A stretch of DNA of 64,000 nt from positions 10,737 to 74,736 of the forward strand of contig CALXRE010000058.1 of assembly GCA_944390645.1 (NCBI GenBank), given 5' to 3'. Position 1 is the stretch's first letter, and every line of letters begins with the position of its first letter. Below, piece after piece: positions 3,574 to 55,082 of the stretch. Source of the DNA: an uncultured Alphaproteobacteria bacterium (GTDB lineage Bacteria; Pseudomonadota; Alphaproteobacteria; CACZRW01). Both the position numbers and the translations under genes were made by a program. Under the pieces are notes generated by a model that saw only the letters and a program-made list of their open reading frames with translations, had not been told where the DNA came from and did no database searches.

Positions 3574-3948
3574 ATGACGGAAAATAATGAAAATTCTCAG
3601 GAAAAAAAAGAGTATATGAAACTATTTAAAAATAAATGGAAGGAAACTGCTATGAAACTACAAATAGATATTAAACCAGAAGATTTATTATCTTTCGATA
3701 AAATGATAGCTTTGCCTGCAATCAAAATTCTTTATTGGTTAGGTCTTTTGTGTGTGGCTATATATGGCTTAGCTAGTGTTTTCCAAGGAGGATTCCACAA
3801 TATATTAATCGGTTTTTCTTTGATAATCGTAGGCGCGGTCCTTTGGAGAATTACTTGTGAAGCCGCTATCTTGTTGTTCGGAATATACGATCGCTTGGGA
3901 GATATAAGAAACGCTATCGTAAAAGAAAATAAAAATATTAAAAAATAA
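3574..3948 (+). CDS. small membrane protein (DUF4282-like), co-transcribed with lysS
   Basis: Starts 3 nt after the lysS stop. Two hydrophobic helices (ILYWLGLLCVAIYGL, LIGFSLIIVGAVLW). Followed by a terminator. Confidence 0.5.
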   Translation: MTENNENSQEKKEYMKLFKNKWKETAMKLQIDIKPEDLLSFDKMIALPAIKILYWLGLLCVAIYGLASVFQGGFHNILIGFSLIIVGAVLWRITCEAAILLFGIYDRLGDIRNAIVKENKNIKK

Positions 3949-3957
3949 TTAGTCTAA

Positions 3958-3995
3958 GGAACCAGAAAAGATTAAAAAATACTGGTTCCTTTTTT
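3958..3995 (+). terminator. rho-independent terminator after the lysS operon
   Basis: ggaaccag-16 nt loop-ctggttcc followed by tttttt. Confidence 0.7.
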
Positions 3996-4501
3996 ATTTG
4001 TTGTTTGACGCTCAACAATACCAAAAAATTGGCTAGAAACTCCTCCTGAAACAAGCTTGTTAATCGGAAAAGCAGTTGTTTTTAATATCGGTTCGCTTGA
4101 CTTTTCTTCTCCTCTTTTCTTGCTTGGTCCACTCGTAAATACCTTTATCTTGTCAAGCATTTGTTTATACTCATTAGTTGTCATAATTTTACTTCTCCTT
4201 GAATATAATAACCTTATTTATAGTTGAATATTAGAATATTTGCTTTTATATGTCAACTAATTTGTCGAATAATAATTTGTTGCTTTATCTTACTGAAATA
4301 TATCTGTTTTTGTGGGTAATATTAAAGATAAAAAATTAAAGTTATTTCATTTTAATAATTAAACCTAATTCGTGAACTATGCTCTATGCATTATAAAAAG
4401 AAAAACCTTGACATATGGGGTTAAAATGAGTAAAAAACGTATCCCTCTGCGGCTATGGTTATCCGCGGTATCTTATTTTTTGGTTTTATGGTAGGAAAAT
4501 T

Positions 4502-4804
4502 ATGTTTGCAATAATAAAGACCGGCGGCAAGCAATATAAAGTCGCAAAAGATGAAATAATAATTGTAGAAAAGCTTGATGGTGATGTCGGTTCTACCTAT
4601 TCTTTTGATGAAGTGTTGATGGTAGACGATAACGTTGGAAATCCTTTGGTAAAGGGTGCTAAAGTTACTGGTGAAATAATGGCGCAGAAAAAAGATGATA
4701 AAGTCTTAGTATTTAAAAAAAGACGTCGTCAAAATTATCGTCGCTTAAAAGGTCACAGACAGCTAATTTCAATAGTGAAAATTAAGGATATAGTTGCCGG
4801 TTAA
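4502..4804 (+). CDS. rplU: 50S ribosomal protein L21
   Basis: MFAIIKTGGKQYKV start characteristic of L21; 100 aa. Confidence 0.9.
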   Translation: MFAIIKTGGKQYKVAKDEIIIVEKLDGDVGSTYSFDEVLMVDDNVGNPLVKGAKVTGEIMAQKKDDKVLVFKKRRRQNYRRLKGHRQLISIVKIKDIVAG

Positions 4805-11950: not shown

Positions 11951-12037
11951 TTTGAAATCTTCTTTAACGCTTTATAAGAAATAGTTTATTAACGCTTTTA
12001 TGTTCTAATATTGCTTTAAAATAGCTAGGGATAAATT

Positions 12038-13306
12038 ATGGATGCTTTAAATCAGGGACCTGAACAGCAAATAATTGATACTTTAGAGAGATTACTAAAA
12101 TCTCCTGATATCTTCTATGCGGTAAGAATTTTCGTCTCTCGCTTGCTCCCTGTACATCAAAATAATAATAAAATCGCTATTATCTTCCATATCTTGGGCG
12201 AAAATAATTATATTTATAAATTATCAAACCAAGATGTGATTTTGCTTATTCGAAATGTCAAAAAAAAACAACTTGAACAACTCTTTGATTCTATTCGTTC
12301 CTTGTTCCCTAGAGACCCTGCTATATTAAAAAATCCTCCAGAATATTTTATCAAAACCTATAATCTGAAAAGTGAATATAGATCTTTTGTTCAAGATCTT
12401 AATAAATTAGAAAATGAAGAAAAAATAAATAAAAATGAAAAATACAAAATCCCTTTAACTCCTGAAAACTTAGAGGAGGAAATCCAAAGAGCTAAACTCT
12501 CTGATATCGTAGACGCTATTCGAAAACAACCTGTAATAACTCTCGCTGCTCAACAAAAAATAAAAATCTTATTCTATGAATTCTTTACTTCAACTACTTT
12601 GTTAGGGCAAAAAGCTATACCAAATGTTAATTTATTATCTGATCCTTGGTTGTTCCAACACTTAACGGAAACTTTGGATTTGAAAGTTATTGATGCTATT
12701 CAAAATAGTAAACTAGCTTTTCTCCCTCCTGTAATTAGTCTGAATTTAAATATTTCATCTCTTTTTAATCCTATTTTCTCAGACTTTAGCTATAAAATGT
12801 TGGAAAAAAATATAACCATTATCGCTGAAATACAAGTCCGTGATATCTTTTCTAATCCTGATGGCTATATAAAAGCAAAAGAAATGTTAAATAAAATGGG
12901 GCATAAAATCCTCTTGGATGGTGTTAATCACAATTCTTTGCTCTTCCTAGACGTTATTAGCTTTAATCCTGATTTAATAAAAATTATTTGGTCATCTCAG
13001 CTCGAAGATGATTATGATATTGAAAGGTTAAAACAAATTCGTGAAAAAAACCAAAAAATTATATTGTGTAGATGTGATGATGAAAAAGCTCTAATGTGGG
13101 GCGTGAATAATAAAATACGATTATTCCAAGGTGTTTTCGTAGATAAAATGGTCGCTGCTCTTACTAAAAAAATATGTAAAAACTTATCTTGCTCCTTAGC
13201 CGAATGTATCGAAAATCTTAATGCTATGCCTAGCAATATATACTCAAAATGTCAAAATACAGAAATTATTGATAATCCTCCGTTCGAAACTGAAAAAATC
13301 TGGTAG
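12038..13306 (+). CDS. hypothetical protein, N-terminal unknown domain + C-terminal degenerate EAL-like domain (paralog A)
   Basis: C-terminal half aligns by eye to the EAL fold: PWLFQHLTETLD, LNLNISSLFNP, ILLDGVNHNSLLFLDVISFNPDLIKIIWS, IILCRCDDEKALMWGVNNKIRLFQGVFV. Catalytic residues are substituted. Paralogous over its full length to the next gene. Confidence 0.55.
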   Translation: MDALNQGPEQQIIDTLERLLKSPDIFYAVRIFVSRLLPVHQNNNKIAIIFHILGENNYIYKLSNQDVILLIRNVKKKQLEQLFDSIRSLFPRDPAILKNPPEYFIKTYNLKSEYRSFVQDLNKLENEEKINKNEKYKIPLTPENLEEEIQRAKLSDIVDAIRKQPVITLAAQQKIKILFYEFFTSTTLLGQKAIPNVNLLSDPWLFQHLTETLDLKVIDAIQNSKLAFLPPVISLNLNISSLFNPIFSDFSYKMLEKNITIIAEIQVRDIFSNPDGYIKAKEMLNKMGHKILLDGVNHNSLLFLDVISFNPDLIKIIWSSQLEDDYDIERLKQIREKNQKIILCRCDDEKALMWGVNNKIRLFQGVFVDKMVAALTKKICKNLSCSLAECIENLNAMPSNIYSKCQNTEIIDNPPFETEKIW

Positions 13307-13312
13307 GATAAA

Positions 13313-14560
13313 ATGGTAAAAAATAATCTTACACGACAAGAAACTCAATTACTCTTATATATAAAAAAACTTGAGAAAGATATAAATAAAATCCCTTATG
13401 ATGTTTTATATCTTAAAACTTCTCAGTTGCCAGAAAAACAAAAAAATCGCTTCTTAAAAGCAATAAATGATATGATCCAACCTATGGTTCTCTTACATAA
13501 ATGGCAAAAATTCTTCCTCGCTAATGATGATATCGTCTTATTCTTCTCTGCTACTCAAAAAGATGAACTGGAAGCTATTATATTTAAAATCAATTTCTTC
13601 GTCCCAGAAGAAAACGCTTATGAACTGACAAAGGTCTATAATCTTAAAAAACAATTTAAAGAGTTTTTAGAATGCTTGAATTCAAAAATAGGAAGAAAAA
13701 AAGAAAATAAAAATGTTCAAAAAAAAGAAAATGTTTTTGAAGCTTTACCTAATAATTTAGATAAAGAAAAAAATGAAGATAAACCAAAAAAACAACCATT
13801 AACTCCTAAAATGCTCTCAATGGTTGAAAATTCCCTTAAAGGAACAGATTTCGCTAATATGATTAGACGGCAGTCGATATGTGTAGTCGTAGGTTCTTCT
13901 CAGCCTCAACCTATGTTCGATGAGGTGTTCGTATCTGTTTCGGATTTAAGAGATACTTTGCTCCCTAATGTCGATTTCTCTCTTACTCCATGGCTTTTCC
14001 AACATCTTACGGAAACTCTGGATAAAAGAGTACTATCAAATATTAATAGACATGATGACGGTTCGTTTAAAAGTCATTTTAGTATCAATTTAAATGTTTC
14101 TACTATCTTGTCTCCTGATTTTATAAGCTTCGATAAAGGTATACCTAACGCTTTCAAAAATACTATATTCCTAGAACTTCAACCAGTTGATATATTCTCT
14201 GATCTAGCTTCTTATATTATGGCTAAAAACTTTGCTAAAGAACGAGGATATAAAATCTGTATTGATGGTATCTCTCATACTTCTTTGCAATACATAGATA
14301 GAGAACGATTAGATGCGGATCTATTAAAAGTTTTCTGGAGCCAAGATATTATTAATCGAATAGAAAAAAATGATGAAAACATCTTCCTTGATATCAAAAA
14401 AAATGGTCCTTCAAGAGTAGTCCTAGCTAGAGTAGATGATGCTAAAGCTATAGATATAGGGCATACTCTAGGAATAAATATATTCCAAGGGCGATATATC
14501 CAAAAACTCTTAACTTCTTCTCCAGAAAAAAGAAGAGTAAATTCTTTTTATATGGGATAA
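13313..14560 (+). CDS. hypothetical protein, N-terminal unknown domain + C-terminal degenerate EAL-like domain (paralog B)
   Basis: Shares PWLFQHLTETLD exactly with paralog A. FSINLNVSTILSPDF, ICIDGISHTSLQYIDRERLDADLLKVFWS, VVLARVDDAKAIDIGHTLGINIFQGRYI match the EAL scaffold with degenerate DDFGTG and EGVE positions. Confidence 0.55.
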   Translation: MVKNNLTRQETQLLLYIKKLEKDINKIPYDVLYLKTSQLPEKQKNRFLKAINDMIQPMVLLHKWQKFFLANDDIVLFFSATQKDELEAIIFKINFFVPEENAYELTKVYNLKKQFKEFLECLNSKIGRKKENKNVQKKENVFEALPNNLDKEKNEDKPKKQPLTPKMLSMVENSLKGTDFANMIRRQSICVVVGSSQPQPMFDEVFVSVSDLRDTLLPNVDFSLTPWLFQHLTETLDKRVLSNINRHDDGSFKSHFSINLNVSTILSPDFISFDKGIPNAFKNTIFLELQPVDIFSDLASYIMAKNFAKERGYKICIDGISHTSLQYIDRERLDADLLKVFWSQDIINRIEKNDENIFLDIKKNGPSRVVLARVDDAKAIDIGHTLGINIFQGRYIQKLLTSSPEKRRVNSFYMG

Positions 14561-14618: not shown

Positions 14619-14655
14619 AAAAAAACCGGAGGAAAATATTCTCCTCCGGTTTAAT
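14619..14655. terminator. bidirectional rho-independent terminator between paralog B (+) and hppA (-)
   Basis: Perfect 8-bp stem ccggagga / tcctccgg with an 8-nt loop, flanked by an A-run upstream and a T-run downstream. Confidence 0.7.
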
Positions 14656-14668
14656 CTTGCGCTTTAAG

Positions 14669-17107
14669 CTACCTCTTTAAATTGGTAATCTGCATCCCGT
14701 AAAAAGAACGAAGAACAAAACCACAGGCAACTATCAATAAACCAGCTCCAACATATGGCGCTATATCCGTAAAGTTCGGTGCAACTGCTATTTCAACCGC
14801 AAGAAGACCAAACAAAGTCGTAAATTTAATGATAGGATTTAAAGCAACCGAAGAGGTGTCCTTAAACGGATCCCCAACAGTATCTCCAATAACTGCTGCC
14901 TCGTGTAAGTCTGTTCCTTTCTCTTTTAGGTCAACTTCAACAACTTTTTTCGCGTTGTCCCATGAACCTCCAGCATTAGCCATGAAAATAGCTTGGTATA
15001 AACCAAAAATAGCTATCGATACTAAGTAACTGGCAAAGAATGTCGGATCAAAAAAGGCAAATGCTAATGTGAACGCAAAAATAGCTCCAAATATGTTTAC
15101 CATACCTGATTGAGCATATTGCGTACAAATCTTAACAACTTCCTTGGATGATTCTATTGAAGCTTTCTGCGTCGTATCAAGCTTAATATTGGCCTTAATA
15201 TATTCAACAGCTCGATAAGCTCCTGTTGATACTGCCTGCATAGATGCTCCACAGAACCAATAAATAACAGCTCCTCCTGTAATTAAACCAAGAAGAACTT
15301 TCGGCTCTACAATGTTAAGATTTAAACTTAACATTAATATGATCGAGAAAATCATCGTCGTAGCACCAATAACTGCCGTACCTATTAATACTGGCTTCGC
15401 AGTGGCTTTAAAGGTGTTACCTGCCGAGTCATTCTCTTCTAAAAAGTCCTTGCCTTCTGCAAAACAAGGCTTGAAACCAAAGTCCTTCTCTATTTCCTTC
15501 GATATGTTCGGCTCTTGCTCTATTTGAGAAAGCTCAAATACTGATTGAGCATTGTCGGTTACTGGACCATAACTATCTACGGCTATAGTAACAGGTCCCA
15601 TACCAAGCATACCAAATGCTACTAATCCAAAAGCAAAAATTGCAGGGAAAATCATGTGATCATTAAGATGAAACTCTGGACATATAACTGCAACATAAGT
15701 TGCTAAAGTCATTATGCCTACTAAAACTAAGCCTTTCCAAAATGCACTGAAATTACCCGCTATAATGCCAGATAAAATAGTTAGCGATGCTCCTCCTTCT
15801 CGGCTGGCTGCAACTATCTCTTTAACGTGCTTTGACTTCGAAGAAGTAAAAATCTTCGTAAATTCTGGAATAAGTGCAGCTATTAATGTCCCACAACTAA
15901 TAATTAACGATAAAGCTAACCATAAAGTCGTGTCTCCATTAATATTCCCTATCAAAAGATAACTTGCTCCAAATGTCATAGCTATGGAAATAATCGAGGT
16001 TAACCAAACTAAAGAAGTTAATGGATTCTCAAAATTGAATTTCTTCGAATTCTTATATACTCTCGAAGATACAAACTTGTTGATACCATATGATAACAAA
16101 CTCGTGAGAATCATTAATACACGCATGGTGAAAATCCAAACGATTAATTGAGCTTGCGTCTCTGCTCCTATGGCTGTCGCTACCCTCGTCCCATCTGGAC
16201 CAACCGTAGTTCCTACTGCCATAACAATAAATACAACAAGCGCAACTCCTGTAACACCATATGTCTCAAATCCATCTGCCGTAGGTCCTACTGAATCTCC
16301 TGCGTTATCTCCTGTGCAGTCGGCTATAACTCCAGGATTCCTTGCATCATCTTCTTTTATCTTGAAAACAATCTTCATTAAGTCAGAACCAATGTCGGCA
16401 ATCTTGGTGAAAATACCTCCGCAAATCCTAAGCGCTGATGCTCCTAAAGATTCTCCAATCGCAAAACCTATAAAACAGGCTCCTGCATTCGCTGGATCTA
16501 CAAACTTTAAAATGAAAAGCATCATGATAAGTTCTACACAGATTAGTAATACACCTATGGACATGCCTGCTCTTAATGGTATCCCCATAACAGGATAGGG
16601 CTTGCCTTGCAAAGATGCAAAAGCTGTACGACTGTTCGCATATGTGTTAATCCTAATACCAAACCAGGCAACACTGAAAGAGCCTAAAATTCCTATGATA
16701 GACCAGCTTAAAATTACAAGAACTCTAGAAAGTTCAAAGTCATTCAGACAGTAAAAATAATAAAATATACATGCCCCTATGAATAACTCTAAAACAATCA
16801 AAAGCTTACCTTGTTGCAAAAGATATGTCTTACAGGTCTCATATATAGTGTTCGAAACATCTGCCATGGTACGATGAACGGGTAATTTCTTTATCCCTAA
16901 AAATTCATAAAATCCAAAAAGCATACCAAGTACACAGATAACCATTCCCCACCCAATCAATGAATATCCAGTTAATACATGACCGAATATGTTATATGTT
17001 TGATTAAGCTTGGGGAGAACTATATCAGCTTCACTCGCTAATGATGGACTCGAAATACATACAAGACCTATCATTAATAAGGAAAGCTTAAGAATAAACT
17101 TATTCAT
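14669..17107 (-). CDS. hppA: membrane-bound H+ (or Na+)-translocating inorganic pyrophosphatase
   Basis: 812 aa polytopic membrane protein with V-PPase signatures GDTVGDPFKDT, GGSWDNAKK, DNAGDSVGP and DCTGDNAG. Confidence 0.9.
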   Translation of the reverse strand: MNKFILKLSLLMIGLVCISSPSLASEADIVLPKLNQTYNIFGHVLTGYSLIGWGMVICVLGMLFGFYEFLGIKKLPVHRTMADVSNTIYETCKTYLLQQGKLLIVLELFIGACIFYYFYCLNDFELSRVLVILSWSIIGILGSFSVAWFGIRINTYANSRTAFASLQGKPYPVMGIPLRAGMSIGVLLICVELIMMLFILKFVDPANAGACFIGFAIGESLGASALRICGGIFTKIADIGSDLMKIVFKIKEDDARNPGVIADCTGDNAGDSVGPTADGFETYGVTGVALVVFIVMAVGTTVGPDGTRVATAIGAETQAQLIVWIFTMRVLMILTSLLSYGINKFVSSRVYKNSKKFNFENPLTSLVWLTSIISIAMTFGASYLLIGNINGDTTLWLALSLIISCGTLIAALIPEFTKIFTSSKSKHVKEIVAASREGGASLTILSGIIAGNFSAFWKGLVLVGIMTLATYVAVICPEFHLNDHMIFPAIFAFGLVAFGMLGMGPVTIAVDSYGPVTDNAQSVFELSQIEQEPNISKEIEKDFGFKPCFAEGKDFLEENDSAGNTFKATAKPVLIGTAVIGATTMIFSIILMLSLNLNIVEPKVLLGLITGGAVIYWFCGASMQAVSTGAYRAVEYIKANIKLDTTQKASIESSKEVVKICTQYAQSGMVNIFGAIFAFTLAFAFFDPTFFASYLVSIAIFGLYQAIFMANAGGSWDNAKKVVEVDLKEKGTDLHEAAVIGDTVGDPFKDTSSVALNPIIKFTTLFGLLAVEIAVAPNFTDIAPYVGAGLLIVACGFVLRSFYGMQITNLKR

Positions 17108-20397: not shown

Positions 20398-20474
20398 CGG
20401 AATGTAGCTCAGTCTGGTAGAGCACCACGTTCGGGACGTGGGGGTCGCTGGTTCGAATCCCGTCATTCCGACCA
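20398..20474 (+). tRNA. tRNA-Pro (anticodon CGG)
   Basis: 77-nt cloverleaf folded by hand. Acceptor stem cggaatg/cattccg, D arm agctcagtctggtagagc, anticodon stem ccacg/cgtgg with loop TTCGGGA (CGG), T arm ggttcgaatcc, 3' CCA encoded. Confidence 0.85.
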
Positions 20475-20503
20475 TAAATAAACTAATCTAAAAATCTTTA
20501 ACG

Positions 20504-20713
20504 TTAGTAGTGTGGTGGGGGTGTCTCTTCTGATAGTGGACGAATGTTGCTACCTAGTGCTTCTTTTAATTCTTTATTCTCTTTTATTAAACGGTCTATA
20601 ATCTTCCATTGCTTAATAATTTCTTCATTCAATTCATTTAGCATTTTTTGTTGATGGAGAAAGTCTATTTCTAAACTATCTATCCTTTCTTCTATTAGTT
20701 CTTTAATGCTCAT
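20504..20713 (-). CDS. slyX: SlyX family coiled-coil protein
   Basis: 69 aa; MSIKELIEERIDSLE...NELNEEI...IDRL with C-terminal ETPPPHY, which matches the E. coli SlyX C-terminus. Confidence 0.85.
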   Translation of the reverse strand: MSIKELIEERIDSLEIDFLHQQKMLNELNEEIIKQWKIIDRLIKENKELKEALGSNIRPLSEETPPPHY

Positions 20714-20776
20714 GATATCTCTCCTTTCCTTAAATTATATAAGGATAAGCTTAAAAACGTCAATAAGAGAAAATAA

Positions 20777-20806
20777 TTGACAAAAAAGAAAAAAAAGCAT
20801 TAAAAT
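20777..20806 (+). promoter_or_regulatory. sigma70-like promoter driving the 20842-22881 cassette
   Basis: TTGACA (20777-20782), 18-nt spacer, TAAAAT (20801-20806); AGAGGA RBS before ATG 20842. Confidence 0.55.
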
Positions 20807-20841
20807 ACTTAAATGCTTTCTTACAAAAGAGGATTACTATT

Positions 20842-21138
20842 ATGAATAGTGAAAAAATAAAGTATCTCGCATATAAAGAATTAGGTTTTAGTCCTTGTGA
20901 ACATAAATATTTTGATGAATTGCTAGAACAAATTGTTAAAGTTCGAGGTTTATCTGATGAAGACAACCCTATTCATAAAAGTAAAAATTATGAAAATGTG
21001 GAAGCACTTATTGGAAATATAAATAATTTCTTACAAAAATACGCTTTGCGAGCGGGAGAACGTATTGATATTAAACCGCCTGAAATGACAGAAGAAAATA
21101 TATTAGCTTTTGAAAAATTTTCTACCATTTGCAAATGA
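20842..21138 (+). CDS. hypothetical protein (98 aa), first gene of tRNA-adjacent cassette
   Basis: ORF with good promoter and RBS context; no recognisable motif; its 3' end overlaps the next ORF by 10 nt. Confidence 0.5.
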   Translation: MNSEKIKYLAYKELGFSPCEHKYFDELLEQIVKVRGLSDEDNPIHKSKNYENVEALIGNINNFLQKYALRAGERIDIKPPEMTEENILAFEKFSTICK

Positions 21139-21929
21139 GAAAAGAGAAAAAAACTCAATATAAGAACTATAATGCAGTTTTATGTATGGGGGCAGCAGAA
21201 AACGCTGTTCGTTCTCGTATGAAACGGTTGGGAGATGTCATTACAAATGAAGGCGTATCTATTGAAAATATTATGGTTTTAGGGGCGGAAAGAAAATTAT
21301 GGCCTTTGAAAAAAGATGGAGATAGTCGTTCTTTCCCAGAGCCTATTTTATATGATATTTTAGCAAGGCGTTTGACTCAACGGGATGGAAAAACTGTTTT
21401 GCCTGAAGAGGTAAAAGAATATATTTTAAACTTAGAAATTAAAGAAAATGCAGTGGAAAAAATTGCTGAAGAAGTGGCTGCTGATAAATATTTTTCTAGT
21501 ATAAAATGGCCAACTGAAACAGATTTAATCTGTGAAGTTATTAAACAAAATCCAGTATTTGATGCGCAAAAAATTATTGTTGTAAATACACCAGATTTTC
21601 CTGATGGGAAAAGGGCTGATTCTGCTCGTACTATAAAATATGCTTATAAGGAAAATTCGGATATTTTTGTTGCTGGAGCAAAAATTTTGCAAATTTCTTC
21701 ACAGCCATTTACGAGAAACCAAAAAAGAGTTGCTGAATTAAACCTTCCCTCAAACGTTGAAATTGATGTCATAGGAGAAGGAATAGATGAAGGAAAATCT
21801 TTTGAAGCAAGAAAAAAAGATGTGATGATCGGAATGGATTCTATGGCACGAACAATTTATGCATCTTATGGTAAAATAAAAGAGAACATATTGTCTAAAA
21901 ACATGATAGGTAATGAATATAGAAGATAA
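21129..21929 (+). CDS. hypothetical protein (266 aa), alternating beta-strand/helix hydrophobic pattern, family not recognised
   Basis: Alternating hydrophobic strand / helix pattern (AVLCMGAAEN, NIMVLGAERK, KIIVVNTPDFPDG, DIFVAGAKIL) suggests a Rossmann-like fold. Translationally coupled to neighbours on both sides. Confidence 0.5.
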   Translation: MQMRKEKKTQYKNYNAVLCMGAAENAVRSRMKRLGDVITNEGVSIENIMVLGAERKLWPLKKDGDSRSFPEPILYDILARRLTQRDGKTVLPEEVKEYILNLEIKENAVEKIAEEVAADKYFSSIKWPTETDLICEVIKQNPVFDAQKIIVVNTPDFPDGKRADSARTIKYAYKENSDIFVAGAKILQISSQPFTRNQKRVAELNLPSNVEIDVIGEGIDEGKSFEARKKDVMIGMDSMARTIYASYGKIKENILSKNMIGNEYRR

Positions 21930-36426: not shown

Positions 36427-36462
36427 TTAAATAAACTATAATCATAGTTAATGAGGATTAAA

Positions 36463-37053
36463 ATGGATAAAAATAATTTTGCTACTAATTATGATAAAAA
36501 AATCCACGATCTTTATCGTCTAATCAAAATAGATGGAAATTGCTTACGATTAAAAAAAGAAAATTGGCAAACAATTTTAAAAGTATCTTCTATCTTGGAG
36601 GATCTAGAAATAAACTATGATTTCAGTTTTATAAGAGATGATTTCTTTAAAAAGGAAGTAACTATTGTTTCCTTCGCTAATCCAAAAGATTTGCAAATAA
36701 TTAAAGACTTGTTGGTACTAGAAAATAAAAAAATTAAAGATAAAATTAGTACCGCTAGTTATGAAAATAAAATAAATATCCTTGCTGCCGTCTTTTCTGT
36801 AACAAAACAAGGTTTTCTAGAAACTCCAAAATATTTGGGAAAATCTCCTGAAGCTTTTTTCCAAACGGATTTGCGCTTTAAAATAGCTATGGAAACGCTA
36901 AGAAATTTAAATTTCTCTATAGCGGAAGTGCAACAAAAAAGAAACTCTCTCTTGTTTATTCCAGATGGAGAAAAAACTCAAAAAATCATTCAAGATATCT
37001 TAAATGCTAGAATCAATATCCAACTCGCTAATAATAAAAAAAGAACTAAGTAA
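36463..37053 (+). CDS. hypothetical protein (approx 196 aa) in the position normally occupied by pal
   Basis: GAGGA RBS 5 nt before ATG 36463. No signal peptide or OmpA-like motif; no recognisable family. Confidence 0.5.
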   Translation: MDKNNFATNYDKKIHDLYRLIKIDGNCLRLKKENWQTILKVSSILEDLEINYDFSFIRDDFFKKEVTIVSFANPKDLQIIKDLLVLENKKIKDKISTASYENKINILAAVFSVTKQGFLETPKYLGKSPEAFFQTDLRFKIAMETLRNLNFSIAEVQQKRNSLLFIPDGEKTQKIIQDILNARINIQLANNKKRTK

Positions 37054-37080: not shown

Positions 37081-37503
37081 TCAAATGTTCTCTGGTTCAA
37101 GAGTTCTAATGCGTTTGCAAAGTACTGGTATTAAAGCTCTCGCTATATCTGGATGCTCATTGATAAGATCATAAATCTCTACCCCTTTAAGACGAAACAT
37201 TAAAGTATCATCTATCGCGGATATTGTTAAATCTATAGGGGCTGGATCAAATGCATAGGTTACTCCAAAAAAAGAATTCTTACCTAATTCCTTTATCGTC
37301 TTGCCTCCTTTTTCAAAGCGGACCATGCCTTGTACAATTATATATAAAGAATCTAAAATCCCTCCTTCTTTAATAATATCTGAACCAATGATAGCTGGAA
37401 CATCCGTACTCTTCCTAACTATATCGCTTAGTACGGATTCTGGAATACCTGAAAATAAAGGTATCGTTTTCAAAAATAAAACTTTCTCAAAGGTTAATCG
37501 CAT
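37081..37503 (-). CDS. stand-alone cyclic-nucleotide-binding (CAP-effector-like) domain protein with atypical phosphate-binding cassette
   Basis: G-D-x-x-Y-I-V-x-G-x-V pattern (GGILDSLYIIVQGMVRFEKGG) and FFGVTYAF cassette of the cNMP-binding beta-barrel. No HTH. 140 aa. Confidence 0.65.
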   Translation of the reverse strand: MRLTFEKVLFLKTIPLFSGIPESVLSDIVRKSTDVPAIIGSDIIKEGGILDSLYIIVQGMVRFEKGGKTIKELGKNSFFGVTYAFDPAPIDLTISAIDDTLMFRLKGVEIYDLINEHPDIARALIPVLCKRIRTLEPENI

Positions 37504-37515
37504 TACCGTAATCTC

Positions 37516-40221
37516 CTAGTCAAATACAAAATGAGCTATCCTAAATACTTCTGGACAGGGATCTTTAAAGCAGACTGCTGCAAAATCTCTTAGTTCTTCT
37601 TTAGTCGCAACTCGACTTAAAGCCCAAACAGCGGTTTCTCTAATTAAATTATCTGAATTACTACCCGCAAATAATAAAACATCTTTTAAACTCTTATCTT
37701 GGCTCTTGCCCGCAACATAAACTGCACAAGAGGTCGTCCAAGAATGTAAACTACCATTCGCATAATATATTAAATCTTTTAATCGATCAGAAAGATTTAA
37801 TGCACCTATAAACGGTGATGATGATTCTTGATACTTCTTACCGTGAGTAAACGGTAATGTAAAAGATGAGCTAATATCTCCATAATAACTTAAAAGCTTC
37901 TTTAAATTTTTTATCCTATCTTCGCTTTGTTCATGTTCCTTAGCTAAGGCAACGCCTAGAGTATTTACGGAATCCAAAAGTTCTTTATGTTCTTCTTTAC
38001 TCCGATTTATATCATTCTCTGCTGAGCTTAACCAAGCTAAATGCTCTAATTCACTCTTAAGATGCGTACTTAATATTGACGGATTTCCAAAATCAATAAA
38101 AAGATAATCTTTAGAAGTTAAAATCTTTAAAATAACCATCTGTAAATATCTTGATGAGTTATTTAAAACTTCTAATAAAATCGTTTGCGCCTTTAATCCT
38201 CCTATACGACCTATGATATTTATTAACCGTACTTGTAAAGAAATACTGTGTTCTTCAGAATATAATGCTTCTTTTAAGTATGGTAAGGCTTCTTCATCTA
38301 GCTTTAAAAGACCTTCTGTCGCATCCTCTCTGAGCTCAGGAACACTAAGTGCATAGATTAGTTCTTTGGCTAGCTTTGTTGTTCTAAGCTTGCCTGCAGC
38401 AATTACAGCTTCTCTCCTTACTTGAAGTGTCTCATCATGAAGCAAAGGAAATAAAGGACGATAATATTCCTTAATTTTAACACTACCTATGATCTGGGCT
38501 ACTAATAGCCTTTGTTCAGCATTTTCCGAGTTGATTAAACCTGCTATACTTTGAGAGGCTATAAACGATCCTTCTAATCCTCCTTTTAATAAACCTATGG
38601 CGGCTCCTTTTATCATGTTAGGATTGTTTAAATACCAAGAAACTTTCGAATATGTATTCTCTCCCCCTATAACACAATAAGCTCTTAATGCTCGATTGCG
38701 AACCTCTATTGAAGGATCTAATTCTACTAAATTTAAAATTAAAGGTAAGGCACTCTTAACCTTTAAATACTCTAATCTAGAAAGAGCAAAAAGTCTTACT
38801 CGTTCTTCAGAATTATTCAAAGAATACGAAAGTAATCGATCAATACTTGGATGTTCAGATACTTCTAAAACTCTTAAAAAATAAATCGTACTTTCTACAT
38901 CTTGATGTAAAATTTCTTCCTCTATGTAATCTTTTAAATGCTTATCTTCTAAAAATAAACGACCTCCCCACCAATAACGACTCATTAAAGTATCATATGT
39001 AATGCGGGTATAAAGACGAAAAGAAATATAAGCAAAAAGAATAATCAAAAGCGTAATTATTAATAATGAAATCGGTAAATCCCAAAATACAGGATGCGCC
39101 TCTATAAAAATTAAAAGAACTCCTGCAAAAACTATACTTACTGGTTCAACTATGATCCTTCTTACTGCTGATAGGCGTTTGCCTAAAGAAGGAAGTAAAG
39201 GAACTGAAAAGGATTTTGCTATCGGAGTAAGAACTAATTTATATATAATATCTTTCCCCATACGCGAAAAAGAAACTAGCCATAATAAAACTAAAAAACA
39301 ACCTGTCGCTCCTATAAAAATAAATATAGGAAGCGTTAATATCGTTGCTTTTAAACCTCTTATCCAAGGAAAATAATGAAATAACAATATAATAGCTAAA
39401 GTTAATAAACCTGCAAAAACATGAAACATCGCAAAAAAAGCTGTCATGTTCGATAGCCATTCTCCATATATCGCATAAACTCCTTGATAAAAAACGTAAT
39501 CGATTAAATAGCCTCCGATAATAAATAAACTTATTAAAGCAAAAAAACAGCATACAAGATATATTTGACGAGGAGAATTCTTTATTCCTTGAACGGTATA
39601 TGTTGAAGAATCTGGTTTGTGCTTATCTAAATGCTTCGCTATCCGATATAACAAAAATCCTGAAATAAATAATAAAAAGGTACTAATTAAAATTAAATTT
39701 ATTGGTAAGACAAAATAAACTAAAACCGTAACCGCAAGTCCACTTGTAATCATCGCTATAGCTTCAGTTGAAAGAATAGCTAGAAAACGCCAAGACTTCC
39801 AATCGTATTCACAAAAACGAAGTGCTATCAGCATAAAAGTAATATCGCTTAAAATAACACAAACGCTCTTCCATACCATTAATGAAGAGATAGAAAAACT
39901 GTTGTATTGACCAAAATAAAGAAGATAAAGCATCAAGGTAATAATAGATAAGGCCATCAAGGTTATTCCCGCCATTATCCCTGGTTGCTTCTTTATTCGA
40001 ATAAAATGAATCGATCCTATGCTCATTAATATACCTGATAGCATAAAGACTATCGGTAAATAGGCTCCTGAAAATTCATATAAAAAAATCGAAGAGGAAG
40101 CCGTCTCTAACATTAAAGACGAAATACGTCGTAGTAAATCACAACAAAAAAGCAAAAGTAAAAGCTTAGCTTCCTTACTCTTAAGTTGTAAAATCTCGTT
40201 TAACGTTCTATCTGATGCCAA
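37516..40221 (-). CDS. large polytopic membrane protein (10-12 TM, MFS/TLC-like) fused to C-terminal HEAT / PBS-lyase-like repeat array
   Basis: N-terminal approx 420 aa are almost entirely hydrophobic helices. The C-terminal approx 450 aa contain repeated units of type SxEVRNRALRAYCVIGG, VRREAVIAAGKL, LREDATEGLLKL, IRETAVWALSRV, typical of HEAT_2 repeats. Confidence 0.6.
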   Translation of the reverse strand: MASDRTLNEILQLKSKEAKLLLLLFCCDLLRRISSLMLETASSSIFLYEFSGAYLPIVFMLSGILMSIGSIHFIRIKKQPGIMAGITLMALSIITLMLYLLYFGQYNSFSISSLMVWKSVCVILSDITFMLIALRFCEYDWKSWRFLAILSTEAIAMITSGLAVTVLVYFVLPINLILISTFLLFISGFLLYRIAKHLDKHKPDSSTYTVQGIKNSPRQIYLVCCFFALISLFIIGGYLIDYVFYQGVYAIYGEWLSNMTAFFAMFHVFAGLLTLAIILLFHYFPWIRGLKATILTLPIFIFIGATGCFLVLLWLVSFSRMGKDIIYKLVLTPIAKSFSVPLLPSLGKRLSAVRRIIVEPVSIVFAGVLLIFIEAHPVFWDLPISLLIITLLIILFAYISFRLYTRITYDTLMSRYWWGGRLFLEDKHLKDYIEEEILHQDVESTIYFLRVLEVSEHPSIDRLLSYSLNNSEERVRLFALSRLEYLKVKSALPLILNLVELDPSIEVRNRALRAYCVIGGENTYSKVSWYLNNPNMIKGAAIGLLKGGLEGSFIASQSIAGLINSENAEQRLLVAQIIGSVKIKEYYRPLFPLLHDETLQVRREAVIAAGKLRTTKLAKELIYALSVPELREDATEGLLKLDEEALPYLKEALYSEEHSISLQVRLINIIGRIGGLKAQTILLEVLNNSSRYLQMVILKILTSKDYLFIDFGNPSILSTHLKSELEHLAWLSSAENDINRSKEEHKELLDSVNTLGVALAKEHEQSEDRIKNLKKLLSYYGDISSSFTLPFTHGKKYQESSSPFIGALNLSDRLKDLIYYANGSLHSWTTSCAVYVAGKSQDKSLKDVLLFAGSNSDNLIRETAVWALSRVATKEELRDFAAVCFKDPCPEVFRIAHFVFD

Positions 40222-42401: not shown

Positions 42402-42971
42402 TTAATATGGGGCAGGGTACGAATTAACTGAATTTGGTTGAGAATAATAAGTGTTATTCGGATCCGTATATTGTTGTTTACCTTTGGTGATGGCATCTAT
42501 CCTTTCTTGGTAAATCTTCTTTACACTTTCAAAAGAACTCTCTAACTCATCTGGGGAAAGTTGTGCTTCTAAACGATCCCTTAAGGGAATAGCATCTGAA
42601 TACTTATCCATAACCGCAAGTTGTGCCCAACGATAAGCAAAAGAAGGACTGTGGGGAAGTATCGTACCTGTATTGTACATCTTTGCTATTTCAAATTCTG
42701 ATGGACCGTGTCCTCGGCTAGCGGCCGAAAGTAAACAATCAACAGCATCTACTCTTTCTTTCTCATCTTTGGAATCCCTAAGTGAAAGTGCTGTATGGTA
42801 TAATTCTTGAACATCTTTTATATTCTTGCAGCGTTCTGATGTATAGGTAAAGTAATTTATAGGTTGATCTGATAAAGTAGAGGATTCACTGCTAAAAGAA
42901 ATTGTAGGAATTCCTAAAATCCCTAAAATAAAAGATAGATAAATAAACTTAGGCATTGTATTCTCCGCCAC
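42402..42971 (-). CDS. secreted Sel1-like repeat protein
   Basis: N-terminal signal peptide (FIYLSFILGILGIPTISFS). Sel1/TPR-like segment AASRGHGPSEFEIAKMYNTGTILPHSPSFAYRWAQLAVMD. Confidence 0.5.
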   Translation of the reverse strand: MAENTMPKFIYLSFILGILGIPTISFSSESSTLSDQPINYFTYTSERCKNIKDVQELYHTALSLRDSKDEKERVDAVDCLLSAASRGHGPSEFEIAKMYNTGTILPHSPSFAYRWAQLAVMDKYSDAIPLRDRLEAQLSPDELESSFESVKKIYQERIDAITKGKQQYTDPNNTYYSQPNSVNSYPAPY

Positions 42972-44963: not shown

Positions 44964-46286
44964 TTGCAAACAGAAACTTTTAAATATACTAGCTATCTAT
45001 TTCAGCCTGAGCTTGGACTACTTACTTTAAATTATGCAGTCGATGATAAATATTCTTTCTCTGAAAAAATATTCTTCCCAAAACCTTTTAGATCTTTAAA
45101 TCAAATAGAACTTAAAGCTCTCGATCGTGTTTTTAGGGCTCTTCATATCGCTGCTGGAATAAGTTATTATAAAGCTTTCTTATCCCCTAAAATGGAAATC
45201 TTAACAGAACCTTTGAATCATAATGAGGTCATATTCTTTAACGACTTCTATATCAAAGGATTGGGAGAATTTTCTTTTCGAAATGATGTCAGTATAAAGC
45301 CAAATTTTACTCCAATAGCAAAGTATTCTTATCCTGAAACTATTGAATTACCTAAAAAAATTTTATTGCCTGTAGGGGGTGGAAAAGATTCTTCGGTCGT
45401 AACGGAAATCTTAAAAAATGCTGGATATAAACCTGTTCTTTTTTCTGTTGGTAATCCTCGACCTATTAAAGATTGTATGAAGGTTGCTAATCTGGAAACT
45501 TTAATCGTTAAAAGAGAAATATCTCCTTTGTTGTTAAAACTTAATGAGGAAAATAATATCTTAAACGGTCATGTCCCTGTTACTGGAATTCTTTCTTTTA
45601 TTATGGTCGCTGCTGCTTTATTATATGGTTTCTCAGATATTATTATGGCAAATGAACGTTCTGCAAATGTCGGAAATGTCAAAAAAAATAAGCTTATAGT
45701 TAATCACCAATGGAGTAAATCTCTTGAATTCGAAACCTCTTTTCGAAACTTTATAGCTCAAAATTTATTCATAGGACTTGAATACTTTTCTCTTTTACGA
45801 GGAATGTCAGAGCTTGCTATTGCAAAAAAATTTGCATCCCTTAAACAATATCATACGGTCTTTACTAGTTGTAATCATGCTTTTAAAATCGATGAAACTA
45901 AACGAATTGATCGTTGGTGTTGCTTGTGTGATAAATGCCGTTTCGTCTTCTTGGCTTTGGCTCCTTTCTTATCAAAAAATGAAATGATAAAAATATTTGG
46001 TACAAATCTCCTCGCTGAACCTTCTCAAGAAAGAGGATACAAAGAGTTGTTAGGTCTTAGTGCTTATAAACCTTTCGAATGTGTCGGAGAAATTAAAGAA
46101 TCTGCTGCCGCTCTATCTTTGTTGGCTTCTGAAAAAGACTGGAAAGATGAATATATCGTCCAAAAATTGTTCCCAGAGGTATTTAAAAAATATGGAGATT
46201 GTCAAAACTTTATTCGTGAAGCCTTCTCTAAATCTAATAAACATAATATACCAACGGAGTTCTTAAGTGCAGTTGATAGAGCTTGA
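44964..46286 (+). CDS. PP-loop ATP-pyrophosphatase-like protein with Cys cluster (candidate MurL-type epimerase partner of the adjacent Mur ligase)
   Basis: TTG start with GAGGA RBS. PP-loop-like LPVGGGKDSSVV; Cys cluster DRWCCLCDKCRF. Translationally coupled to the downstream Mur ligase. Confidence 0.5.
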   Translation: MQTETFKYTSYLFQPELGLLTLNYAVDDKYSFSEKIFFPKPFRSLNQIELKALDRVFRALHIAAGISYYKAFLSPKMEILTEPLNHNEVIFFNDFYIKGLGEFSFRNDVSIKPNFTPIAKYSYPETIELPKKILLPVGGGKDSSVVTEILKNAGYKPVLFSVGNPRPIKDCMKVANLETLIVKREISPLLLKLNEENNILNGHVPVTGILSFIMVAAALLYGFSDIIMANERSANVGNVKKNKLIVNHQWSKSLEFETSFRNFIAQNLFIGLEYFSLLRGMSELAIAKKFASLKQYHTVFTSCNHAFKIDETKRIDRWCCLCDKCRFVFLALAPFLSKNEMIKIFGTNLLAEPSQERGYKELLGLSAYKPFECVGEIKESAAALSLLASEKDWKDEYIVQKLFPEVFKKYGDCQNFIREAFSKSNKHNIPTEFLSAVDRA

Positions 46287-47517: not shown

Positions 47518-47922
47518 TTACCCTCTGCTATTATTTTGGGTATATAAAGCTCTCGGTAATGGAGAAAATTCTTTAGCCTCTGTCCTCTTGGAACCCTTGG
47601 GATTAACTATAAATAAAGCTTTCTTCTTGTCCTTTTTGTGATACCTTGATCTTATCTTAATGGATCTTTTATTTAATGCTGTAGGAGAAATAGGATTGAT
47701 TTTCTTCTCTACTCCTTCTTGAACAAGTCTTTGTTCGACTTCTTTCCCCTTATTCGTCAACTCTTTTGCAACTTCAACTTCTAAATTCGTTTTCTTATTA
47801 TCTTCTAATACTTTCGGTTGCACTTCTTCTTTCTTTACCGTCTTCTCTATAGGAGTAGAAATTATATCTTCTGCTACCTTTTGGGCATCTCCATTCTCTC
47901 TAGGCTTTGATACTTCTTCCAT
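47518..47922 (-). CDS. hypothetical Lys/Glu-rich protein
   Basis: 134 aa, highly charged, no recognisable motifs. Confidence 0.35.
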   Translation of the reverse strand: MEEVSKPRENGDAQKVAEDIISTPIEKTVKKEEVQPKVLEDNKKTNLEVEVAKELTNKGKEVEQRLVQEGVEKKINPISPTALNKRSIKIRSRYHKKDKKKALFIVNPKGSKRTEAKEFSPLPRALYTQNNSRG

Positions 47923-47943: not shown

Positions 47944-48633
47944 TTAATGATTATGTAATGCTTCTCTCTGTGCTGCAATAAACCTAAGACGTAATATGCT
48001 TTCTTTCTTCTGTTCTTTTGCCATATGAGAAAAATTATGTTGTATCCTTTTCCCTGCTACATTTATATTCTCTGCTTTGTTATAATCATGTCTATTTAAA
48101 GCTGCTTTTAGCTTCTTTATGCCAAATGTCGAACTAACTAGTTGGGTGGATGATAAATCATTCCCAAATTTCCCTGTAATCCTATTTCGTTGCCATTCTT
48201 GTAAACTTAAATAATTCTCCTTATTTATTTGAATCTCTTGAATTTTCTTCTCTCCATCAAAATCTTTTTCTTCCTCCTTGGAGAGTAAATTATTTTCCTT
48301 TCCTTGTTCTTCTTCTTTAATGCGTTTTAAAAGTTTATTTAACACTTCTGGGTTGTTGGTTTTTATTCTTATAGTAACGTCATCTAAAATAAAAAAAGGT
48401 AAGTCATTTTCTTTTATGGAAGTTGAAGAAGATGAACTTCCTTCTGTCCCCATCTTACTTAAAAGATCTAAAAAGGTAGAACGATTGCTCTCTGTAGGAT
48501 AAATCTCTAAATATTTGTTGATTGCTTTATAAACATCTTTTATATCTCCCGTCAGAGAACGACCTGTTAAAGTGAAAGCCTTTAATATGCGACGGGCTTC
48601 TTCTATGCTTACAGTAGCAACTTTTCCTTCCAT
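47944..48633 (-). CDS. hypothetical protein
   Basis: 229 aa, Ser-rich patch and charged low-complexity middle; no recognisable motifs. Confidence 0.4.
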   Translation of the reverse strand: MEGKVATVSIEEARRILKAFTLTGRSLTGDIKDVYKAINKYLEIYPTESNRSTFLDLLSKMGTEGSSSSSTSIKENDLPFFILDDVTIRIKTNNPEVLNKLLKRIKEEEQGKENNLLSKEEEKDFDGEKKIQEIQINKENYLSLQEWQRNRITGKFGNDLSSTQLVSSTFGIKKLKAALNRHDYNKAENINVAGKRIQHNFSHMAKEQKKESILRLRFIAAQREALHNH

Positions 48634-54527: not shown

Positions 54528-55082
54528 ATGCATGCTTGGCATACTGTAGAAACTGGAAATAATGTTCCAGAAGAAATTAATGCTGTAATCGAAGTCCCAA
54601 TGGGATCTAAAATAAAATATGAGCTTGATAAAAAAAGTGGTCTTATAATCGTAGATCGAATATTGTTTAGTTCTGTTCATTATCCTGCAAATTATGGTTT
54701 CATTCCTCAGACTTATTCTGAAGATCATGACCCTTTAGATATTTTAGTTCTAGGACAAATGCCTGTACATCCTTTATCTATTATGCGGGCTAAGCCTATT
54801 GGTTTAATGAAAATGCTTGATCAAGGGGAAGCTGACGATAAAGTAATCGCTGTACATGCTAATGATCCAGAATTTAATCATTATGAATCTGTAAATGATT
54901 TGCCTCCTCATAGATTGGAAGAAGTTAAGCGTTTCTTTGAGGATTATAAAGCGTTAGAAAATAAAACCGTAGTAGTAGAAAAATTCTTAGATAAAGATGA
55001 GGCGTTTAAAGTAATTAAACACTCTATAGATGCTTATAAAAAACAAATAAAGCCTATAATTAGCTTCGGTTTTAAACCTTAA
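54528..55082 (+). CDS. ppa: inorganic pyrophosphatase (family I)
   Basis: 184 aa; [11 protein letters not shown] and [20 protein letters not shown] motifs. Confidence 0.9.

Follow-up and report, generated by a model that had tools for sequence, protein, structure and literature searches.

A conserved tandem pair of doubly degenerate GGDEF-EAL paralogs in Alphaproteobacteria as a candidate heteromeric nucleotide receptor

Two adjacent open reading frames (ORFs), ORF1 and ORF2, lie on the plus strand of the window analyzed here, i.e. the whole 64,000-nucleotide stretch of contig CALXRE010000058.1 (assembly GCA_944390645.1, positions 10,737 to 74,736) from an uncultured alphaproteobacterium. ORF1 (12038-13306), encoding the 'A' subunit of 422 amino acids (aa), comprises a degenerate GGDEF-like domain, a degenerate EAL-like domain and a tail bearing four cysteines (Cys4), while ORF2 (13313-14560), encoding the 'B' subunit of 415 aa, is built of a degenerate GGDEF-like domain, a disordered linker and a degenerate EAL-like domain. 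According to the ORF calls for the window, the two genes are separated by 6 nt. Their products are identical at 31% of positions over 350 aa (BLASTP, E=7e-46), as expected of true paralogs, and both contain the 12-aa motif PWLFQHLTETLD (residues 203-214 in ORF1 and 226-237 in ORF2); the description of the locus as two adjacent paralogs with a shared motif, proposed in a first-pass annotation of this DNA, was thus borne out. Since the DNA encoding this motif matches at only 29 of 36 positions between the genes, the motif is kept by purifying selection, and the seven differing positions rule out recent gene conversion as the source of the sharing.

The C-terminal parts of both proteins, about 240 aa in length, adopt the EAL fold. 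In ORF1 the domain extends over aa ~138-372 (12449-13153, plus strand), as delimited by the Pfam match and by residue mapping, and in ORF2 over aa 161-405 (13793-14527, plus strand), as delimited by Pfam, Foldseek and the comparison of the family profile with the Protein Data Bank (PDB). Similarity to the Pfam EAL model (PF00563), suggested as a check in the first-pass annotation, proved to be real and weak: ORF2 scored 25.1 bits (E=1.3e-5) and ORF1 15.1 bits (E=0.016), both under the gathering cut-off of 31.3 bits, which is exceeded by such relatives as P0217 (52.1 bits) and P0243 (36.8 bits). The sole NCBIfam model with any match was CsrD (E=5.7e-4, 18 bits against a cut-off of 663 bits), and a single-sequence search of the PDB gave no match. 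When the family profile was compared with PDB sequences, 8pps (2.5e-6), RbdA (1e-5) and LapD of Vibrio cholerae (4e-5) were found. An AlphaFold2 (AF2) model of ORF2, based on a 28-sequence family alignment, reached a mean predicted local distance difference test (pLDDT) value of 84.9; in it residues 1-126 form an N-terminal domain, residues 130-154 are a disordered linker, and a beta/alpha barrel takes up residues from about 160 to 405. With this model Foldseek retrieved 99 PDB matches at E<=1e-3, and the 50 best matches listed were all EAL-domain or GGDEF-EAL structures with probability 1.0, so that the EAL scaffold proposed earlier for the C-terminal domains is corroborated by matches with E from 2.6e-12 to 1e-7, LapD, FimX and YkuI among them. 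At the top stood dual-domain GGDEF-EAL structures aligned over 420-460 columns, with RbdA 5xgb as the best (2.6e-12), accompanied by MorA 4rnf, V. cholerae LapD 6pwk/6pwj, PA0575, DosP and Pseudomonas fluorescens LapD 3pjw; EAL-only receptors were represented by FimX 4afy (TMt 0.60), the LapD EAL domain 3pjt (TMt 0.65) and YkuI 2bas. The two domains of ORF2 are joined by a low-complexity, Lys/Glu-rich linker (aa 127-160; 13691-13792, plus strand) which ends in a conserved PLTP helix start, varies in length across the family, and has pLDDT values below 50 at residues 130-154. In neither protein was an additional Pfam domain detected or a hydrophobic run reaching 15 residues, and the AF2 model contains two domains plus the linker only; both proteins are thus soluble, without a sensor, receiver or membrane module.

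The N-terminal domains had been described as paralogous and matching nothing recognizable; the second of these points has to be revised. In ORF1 (aa 1-125; 12038-12412, plus strand), aligned with its ORF2 counterpart (aa 1-126; 13313-13690, plus strand), the hairpin on which cyclases bear the GGDEF motif includes residues N64 and D66, and the predicted order of elements in ORF2 is alpha-beta-alpha-beta-beta-alpha-beta-alpha. Modelled alone, the ORF2 N-domain reached an AF2 pLDDT of 88.6. Foldseek found no match for it at or below 1e-3; the best matches were weak (E 0.015-0.1), and the top of the list was composed entirely of class III nucleotidyl cyclases, GGDEF domains (PA2567, PA0575) and Cas10 palm domains. 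Alignment of a 140-sequence N-domain profile with seven E. coli GGDEF domains by hhalign, a comparison that includes the ORF1 domain, gave a score of 25.0 (P=0.0015) with 119 columns in register, as against 10.9 +/- 1.9 (maximum 17.4) for 100 column shuffles and 10.7 for the reversed alignment. The GGDEF motif falls on A70-N71-D72-D73-I74 of ORF2, where only N71 and D73 are near-invariant. In this alignment the strand-1 metal-binding Asp of GGDEF domains is missing, a variable Lys occupying its place, and no RxxD I-site is found five residues upstream of the GGDEF-equivalent position. A profile search of 1.84 billion representative proteins found the domain in 983 clusters; among the 150 clusters listed it was always N-terminal, and most of the proteins were about 400-460 aa long, the others being shorter fragments and two longer proteins. 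The N-domain is, as judged from profile and model, probably a truncated, degenerate and catalytically dead GGDEF-like palm. Because this profile match stands together with the full-length Foldseek result, both proteins can be regarded as doubly degenerate GGDEF-EAL proteins.

What remains of the EAL pocket was determined by mapping residues onto RbdA, V. cholerae LapD and E. coli PdeL, for which HMMER and hhalign alignments concur, and conservation was tabulated for 70 A-type and 70 B-type proteins from loci in species-representative genomes (140 sequences). Residues retained (ORF2/ORF1 numbering) are the Asn of (S)xN(L)S (N259/N236), the first Glu of ExxE (E288/E264), the first Asp of DDF (D318/D294), the Lys of (D)xxK(I)D, which aligns to the Lys of DFIKID (K339/K315), the QG pair aligning to that of PdeL and RbdA (Q392-G393/Q364-G365), the Glu assigned to the EAL motif (E204 within EVF/E181 within EFF), and an invariant Gln in an RRQ sequence of the first strand, equivalent to that of YQP (Q187/Q164). 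Residues E204, N259, E288, D293, D318, K339, Q392 and G393 of ORF2 are conserved in every one of the 70 A and 70 B proteins; D293 (D269 in ORF1) is specific to this family. Lost are the second Asp of DDF (G319/G295; Gly or Ala in the family), the general base of EGVE (A372-R373-V374-D375/C344-R345-C346-D347; Ala or Cys in place of the Glu), the Arg of EALxR (E-V-F-V-S with S208/E-F-F-T-S; Ser or Ala), and loop 6, which is unrecognizable (DGISHTSL/DGVNHNSL where DFGTGYSS is expected). None of the 140 sequences has the EGVE Glu or the second Asp of DD, and the Gly position of EGVE is taken by Arg in 99% of B proteins and by Lys or Arg, mostly Lys, in A proteins. Both types of alignment agree with the replacements noted earlier, namely DDFGTG by LDGVNHNS or IDGISHTS and EGVE by CRCD or ARVD. 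The broader statement that metal- and substrate-binding residues had been replaced describes well the second Asp, the EGVE Glu, the EALxR Arg and loop 6, but the first metal site is untouched, as are the Lys and the Gln, all of these residues being invariant. The degeneracy is thus selective: the aligned sequences strictly conserve a complete metal site together with the Lys and the Gln, and there is no general decay of the pocket.

One of the four ligands of this metal site requires a comment. The absence of an EAL motif had been reported, yet E204-V-F and E181-F-F occupy a suitable place and their Glu is invariant in 140/140 sequences. The residue lies in the second barrel strand, 17 residues past the invariant Gln of the first strand, and PdeL, an active enzyme, reads EVL where ORF2 has EVF. 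The assignment of E204/E181 as the EAL-motif Glu rests on predicted topology, spacing and invariance; local hhalign, run against an E. coli EAL profile of little depth, did not reach beyond the C-terminal half of the domain and so did not confirm it. Loss of the catalytic-base Glu of EGVE is the current criterion for an EAL domain predicted to be inactive as a phosphodiesterase (PMC12900916). Because this residue is lost, both proteins are predicted to be inactive as canonical phosphodiesterases, and a receptor or interaction role is, in consequence, a reasonable default. In this respect the earlier proposal of a degenerate EAL receptor stands as the default role in view of the lost base, while corrections were needed in what it said about how the pocket is degenerate, about the N-domain and about the evolutionary origin of the pair.

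The pair is neither recent nor confined to one lineage. A word-indexed search returned 849 homologs of ORF2 and 43 of ORF1; beyond the A orthologs (down to about 33% identity), the remaining matches of A were about 25-31% identical. The family, which spans about 1,000 clusters at 50% identity, was found in 430 species in a scan of one genome per species. Its carriers comprise metagenome-assembled genomes (MAGs) of gut and rumen 'Alphaproteobacteria bacterium' and of Candidatus Scatocola, Rhodospirillales from marine, groundwater and soil environments, and such cultured organisms as Oleispirillum naphthae, Oceanibaculum pacificum, Thalassobaculum, Caenispirillum and strain BAL199; O. naphthae carries the pair, and Oceanibaculum, Thalassobaculum and Azospirillum carry single copies. 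With the family hidden Markov model (HMM), the order A-then-B on one strand was found in 73 of 80 retrieved species loci (81 of 88 loci overall), the remaining seven consisting of one contig that was too short, one single fused ORF and five instances of B alone. The nearest neighbor of each of the 140 sequences is of its own type, mean identity being 49% between B proteins, 43% between A proteins and 26% between A and B; by this measure B is the more conserved clade, and the orthologs of ORF1 form the A clade, which is the upstream gene in every pair. These comparisons indicate that the A/B duplication is ancient and its order conserved across Rhodospirillales-like and gut Alphaproteobacteria, in place of the duplicated pair retained in a reduced genome that had been suggested from the single locus.

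The linkage of the two genes is close. Gene-caller coordinates give A-to-B gaps of +6, +7, -4 and -37 nt in four lineages, and the genes are probably co-transcribed and translationally coupled. Natural fusions also exist: in locus L053 (2097-4688) A and B form one continuous ORF of 863 aa, and P0217 (712 aa) consists of a complete A followed directly by the linker and EAL domain of B, the two fusions being independent of each other. Apparent fusions in loci L039 and L074 turned out to be artefacts, namely long alternative-frame ORFs in GC-rich DNA. Among the loci compared, no other neighbor gene was conserved past lineage-level synteny, and the pair therefore constitutes a self-contained unit. 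We found no paper or curated family describing these proteins.

Two observations on particular lineages deserve mention. At 28 loci of one gut lineage, L002/L003 (4618-6678) among them, the pair is preceded on its own strand, at a distance of about 79 nt, by a gene for a hybrid histidine kinase (SBP_bac_3-HisKA-HATPase-REC), and in locus L087 an OmpR-type response regulator (3928-4635) lies about 77 nt upstream, again on the same strand; this hints at a link of the pair to two-component signaling, but neither arrangement is general. The Azospirillum brasilense Sp7 member of the family (locus L094, 3725-5014, on chromid p1, ABSP7_p1, NZ_CP012915.1) is a protein of 429 aa recognized by the family HMM with E=4e-79; it carries no annotation in the PLSDB table, and its carrier is cultured and genetically tractable.

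The two subunits differ in features outside the common pocket. Near its C-terminus ORF1 has the motif C380-x4-C385-x4-C390-x14-C405 (aa 380-405; 13175-13252, plus strand), and the pattern C-x4-6-C-x4-C-x13-14-C occurs in 56 of 70 A proteins and in none of the 70 B proteins. The four Cys are invariant in the aligned A tails, and in the gut lineage the motif sits inside a Lys/Arg-rich segment. No significant relative of the tail was found in the PDB or Pfam; its first three Cys (C-x5-C-x4-C) resemble the CCCH fingers of Nab2, with an insignificant score (E=6.5). The motif is a candidate Zn or Fe-S site. B proteins possess extra invariant arginines instead, R185, R186, R213, R311, R330, R373 and R394.

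Taken together, these features are best read as those of a heteromeric, catalytically inactive nucleotide receptor, in which an EAL-EAL heterodimer would bind a ligand, probably cyclic di-GMP (c-di-GMP); we consider this reading to be about evenly balanced between right and wrong. The pocket keeps the first divalent-metal site complete, with the Asn, the EAL and ExxE Glu residues and the first DDF Asp as its ligands, together with the catalytic Lys and the Gln of QG, and has given up the second-metal ligand, the general base, the EALxR Arg and loop 6. A and B would pair through their EAL domains, as EAL domains generally dimerize. Binding of a phosphodiester, in all likelihood c-di-GMP, would depend on a single metal ion held by the heterodimer, and the ligand would not be hydrolyzed. 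Occupancy of the site might then be relayed by protein-protein contacts. B is probably the main ligand-binding subunit, because it is more constrained and has the extra invariant arginines, and in most lineages the putatively metal-binding Cys4 tail of A could provide a second input or an interaction and docking surface.

Several results weigh against this interpretation. B stands alone at its locus in five lineages (BAL199, Thalassobaculum, Oceanibaculum and two MAGs), and A. brasilense has one single, distant family member, so that a heterodimer cannot be obligatory everywhere; moreover, one of the fusions (L053) lies on a MAG contig of very low coverage. As regards the ligand, Pfam revealed no GGDEF cyclase or PilZ domain in the 64-kb window, no c-di-GMP riboswitch was found there (Rfam detected one tRNA only), and no GGDEF domain was recognized in 1.22 Mb of the window and related loci by an E. 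coli-derived HMM whose positive control worked. As regards the pocket, HMMER and hhalign alignments to canonical EAL sequences stop short of the E204 segment. In canonical EAL domains the Arg of EALxR touches c-di-GMP, and in this family it is replaced by Ser or Ala.

The same losses could be read in a different way, namely that the EAL-like fold has been re-used as a nucleotide-independent protein- or RNA-binding surface, as in YdiV/STM1697, BluF and CsrD, with the Lys/Arg-rich Cys4 tail of A serving as a zinc-knuckle-type element that binds nucleic acid or a partner. The disappearance of the catalytic base, the second-metal ligand, loop 6 and the EALxR Arg would be in line with such a scaffold, as would the weak NCBIfam similarity to CsrD, the Nab2-like spacing of the first three tail Cys, insignificant as it is, and the lack of a cyclase in the window and in the 1.22 Mb examined. 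It is hard to explain, however, why the metal site, the Lys and the Gln should be completely conserved in 140 sequences of both paralogs if no metal-phosphate ligand were bound; CsrD itself has lost most such positions when aligned (NQAG for DDFG and ATGVR for EGVE), and the Cys4 tail is missing from 14 of 70 A proteins and from every B protein. We therefore regard a pure scaffold as possible, though doubtful. Strict retention of the M1 ligands and of the catalytic Lys might, on the other hand, indicate that the proteins are still enzymes, i.e. a non-canonical one-metal phosphodiesterase, which perhaps needs the A/B heterodimer for activity or acts on some other substrate (pGpG, a linear phosphodiester or a cyclic dinucleotide other than c-di-GMP), and in which D293 and R373 (or Lys) would replace the base and the second metal. 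The family-specific invariant D293 and R373 (Lys in most A) do adjoin the site, and EVL/EVF forms of the EAL motif, like that of PdeL, are compatible with activity (in part a matter of general knowledge). Yet characterized EAL enzymes that lose the EGVE Glu and the second DDF Asp are no longer active, as mutagenesis of RocR and TBD1265 reportedly showed. For the Glu, the criterion is restated in PMC12900916. Loop 6 is beyond recognition, and the same S/A-R-V-E/D substitution is found in V. cholerae LapD, a non-catalytic receptor, which makes an enzymatic role quite unlikely in our opinion.

It could also be argued that the genes result from a recent, lineage-specific tandem duplication, or are decaying EAL remnants in a shrinking genome without a joint function. 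The AT-rich composition of the genome (about 33% GC) and the few close homologs of ORF1 relative to ORF2 in the word-indexed search might be taken to favor this possibility. It is refuted by the comparative data and in our view practically untenable: A and B form separate ancient clades arranged in the same order in nearly all of the species loci, whether these come from MAGs of the gut or from Rhodospirillales of the sea and of groundwater, both ORFs are intact and carry strictly conserved residues, and the DNA beneath PWLFQHLTETLD differs synonymously at 7/36 positions.

Comparison with characterized degenerate EAL proteins helps to place the proposed receptor. LapD (3pjw/3pjt from P. fluorescens; 6pwj/6pwk from V. 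cholerae), like each member of the pair, combines a degenerate GGDEF with a degenerate EAL domain in tandem, is among the best full-length structural matches (E from 5.8e-12 to 1.2e-9), and in the V. cholerae protein has S-R-V-E at the EGVE position where ORF2 has A-R-V-D; its EAL domain is the c-di-GMP binding site, according to the titles of structure entries and general knowledge. Unlike the soluble, heterologous A/B pair, LapD is a homodimeric membrane protein with periplasmic, HAMP and S-helix modules, its sequence similarity to the family is marginal (profile E=4e-5), and it is known to have lost its metal ligands, whereas the A/B family keeps a full M1 site. FimX of Pseudomonas aeruginosa and Xanthomonas (4j40, 4afy, 4f48), another degenerate GGDEF-EAL protein, binds c-di-GMP through its EAL domain without hydrolysis and signals via contacts with PilZ and PilB; it matches the ORF2 model with E of about 1e-7 to 1e-8 (TMt 0.55-0.60), but is encoded by a single gene, has REC and PAS input domains and, as is generally known, binds c-di-GMP without metal. 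In CsrD of E. coli, which directs CsrB/CsrC RNAs to decay by RNase E, both domains are degenerate and c-di-GMP is not metabolized; in contrast to the pair, it has two transmembrane segments and a HAMP-like region and has lost most EAL active-site residues. YkuI of Bacillus subtilis (2bas/2w27; EAL fold match with E=2e-7) binds c-di-GMP with no activity shown, and by keeping metal-site residues while being apparently inactive it exemplifies the 'binding-competent, catalysis-poor' state proposed here for A/B. It differs from the pair in that the EGVE Glu and both Asp of DD are kept (general knowledge), in the presence of a C-terminal PAS-like domain, in the lack of an N-terminal GGDEF-like domain and in being homodimeric. 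An alphaproteobacterial example of an inactive EAL protein is TipF of Caulobacter crescentus, a c-di-GMP effector in flagellar placement; unlike A/B it lacks a GGDEF-like domain and contains transmembrane as well as coiled-coil regions, and no sequence or synteny link to it emerged in the searches run. The closest parallel to A and B is thus offered by LapD and FimX with their cytoplasmic GGDEF-EAL modules, yet A and B stand outside those families, because they have neither TM-HAMP nor REC-PAS modules, retain a metal site that those receptors lack and form a fixed paralog pair.

The genes def, fmt and truA are found on one side of ORF1 and ORF2, and a convergent gene for a membrane H+-pyrophosphatase on the other; the same convergent neighbor of ORF2 is present in locus L087. 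A 25-nt block, TTTATTAACGCTTTTATGTTCTAAT (11985-12009, plus strand), ends 28 nt before the start codon of ORF1 and is probably the operon's own promoter or operator. It is identical but for one R position in loci L004 (327-351) and L087 (4659-4683), whose proteins are only 69-78% identical to those of the window, and absent from the other 89 loci checked. In at least one of these two relatives, L087, the gene upstream of the block differs, being an OmpR-type response regulator as against truA in the window. A direct repeat noted previously in this region does occur, the 10-nt sequence TTAACGCTTT having exactly two exact matches in the window, at 11964 and 11989 (about 0.38 matches expected by chance; at least two found in 4 of 100 shuffles). 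Only the proximal copy (11989-11998), which lies within TTTATTAACGCTTTTATGTTCTAAT, is kept in relatives, which rules out a conserved operator pair; the distal copy (11964-11973, plus strand) has no conserved counterpart as such in L004 or L087, the two relatives closest to the window. This copy could conceivably supply a hexamer of the -35 kind, TTAACG, since TATTAA follows at a distance of 17 nt. A 13-bp GC-rich hairpin (14623-14652), likely a shared terminator, separates ORF2 from the convergent H+-pyrophosphatase gene, and a terminator-like site was called there on the minus strand.

Certain other features of the window may be recorded here. Genes of polyphosphate and pyrophosphate metabolism are concentrated in it, those for PPK1, a two-domain PPK2, a soluble inorganic pyrophosphatase and the membrane H+-pyrophosphatase being located at 50194-53801 (minus strand), 54528-55079 (plus strand) and 14669-17107 (minus strand). 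A stand-alone cNMP_binding protein of 140 aa (37084-37503, minus strand), encoded directly downstream of a 901-aa HEAT-repeat protein (37519-40221, minus strand), is an additional small-molecule-signaling candidate; no HD-GYP domain was found in the window with Pfam. A strain-variable spot at ~20400-21900, beside a tRNA gene (20398-20471) and slyX, is occupied in the window and in L088/L090 by unannotated ORFs followed by a Ser/Thr protein kinase gene, and in L089 (17542-20755) by an MmeI-type restriction-modification gene and a DUF2513 gene. Pfam gave no match for six ORFs encoding uncharacterized proteins of this lineage, 134-440 aa in length (21129-21926, 36451-37050, 42405-42971, 44964-46283, 47521-47922 and 47947-48633), five of them after re-scanning at E<=0.01 and the one at 47521-47922 at E<=1e-5 only.

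One may go further and imagine that A and B form an obligate hetero-oligomeric pseudoenzyme, a hitherto undescribed core signaling module of Rhodospirillales-like and gut Alphaproteobacteria, whose one-metal, Arg/Lys-substituted EAL pocket would sense a nucleotide second messenger, not necessarily c-di-GMP, whose Cys4 (Zn or Fe-S) tail would add a redox or metal input, and whose output would go to a partner not marked by any conserved neighboring gene. In this extended form we consider the proposal unlikely.

Few degenerate GGDEF-EAL effectors have been worked out (LapD, FimX and CsrD), and all of them are products of single genes with obvious input modules. The A/B proteins represent a minimal, soluble version of this architecture, in which two ancient paralogs have become a fixed pair; the family is present in the genomes of at least 430 species, and its members are annotated only as 'hypothetical' or 'EAL domain-containing'. 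Their half-active site, in which one metal site is kept and the base and second metal have given way to Arg or Lys, bears on the manner in which an EAL enzyme may change into a receptor, and the pair itself bears on the question whether paralogous pseudoenzymes work as heterodimers. For the AT-rich gut and rumen alphaproteobacterial lineage from which the window comes, and which is without a cultured representative, these two genes are among the few of a signaling type that are visible.

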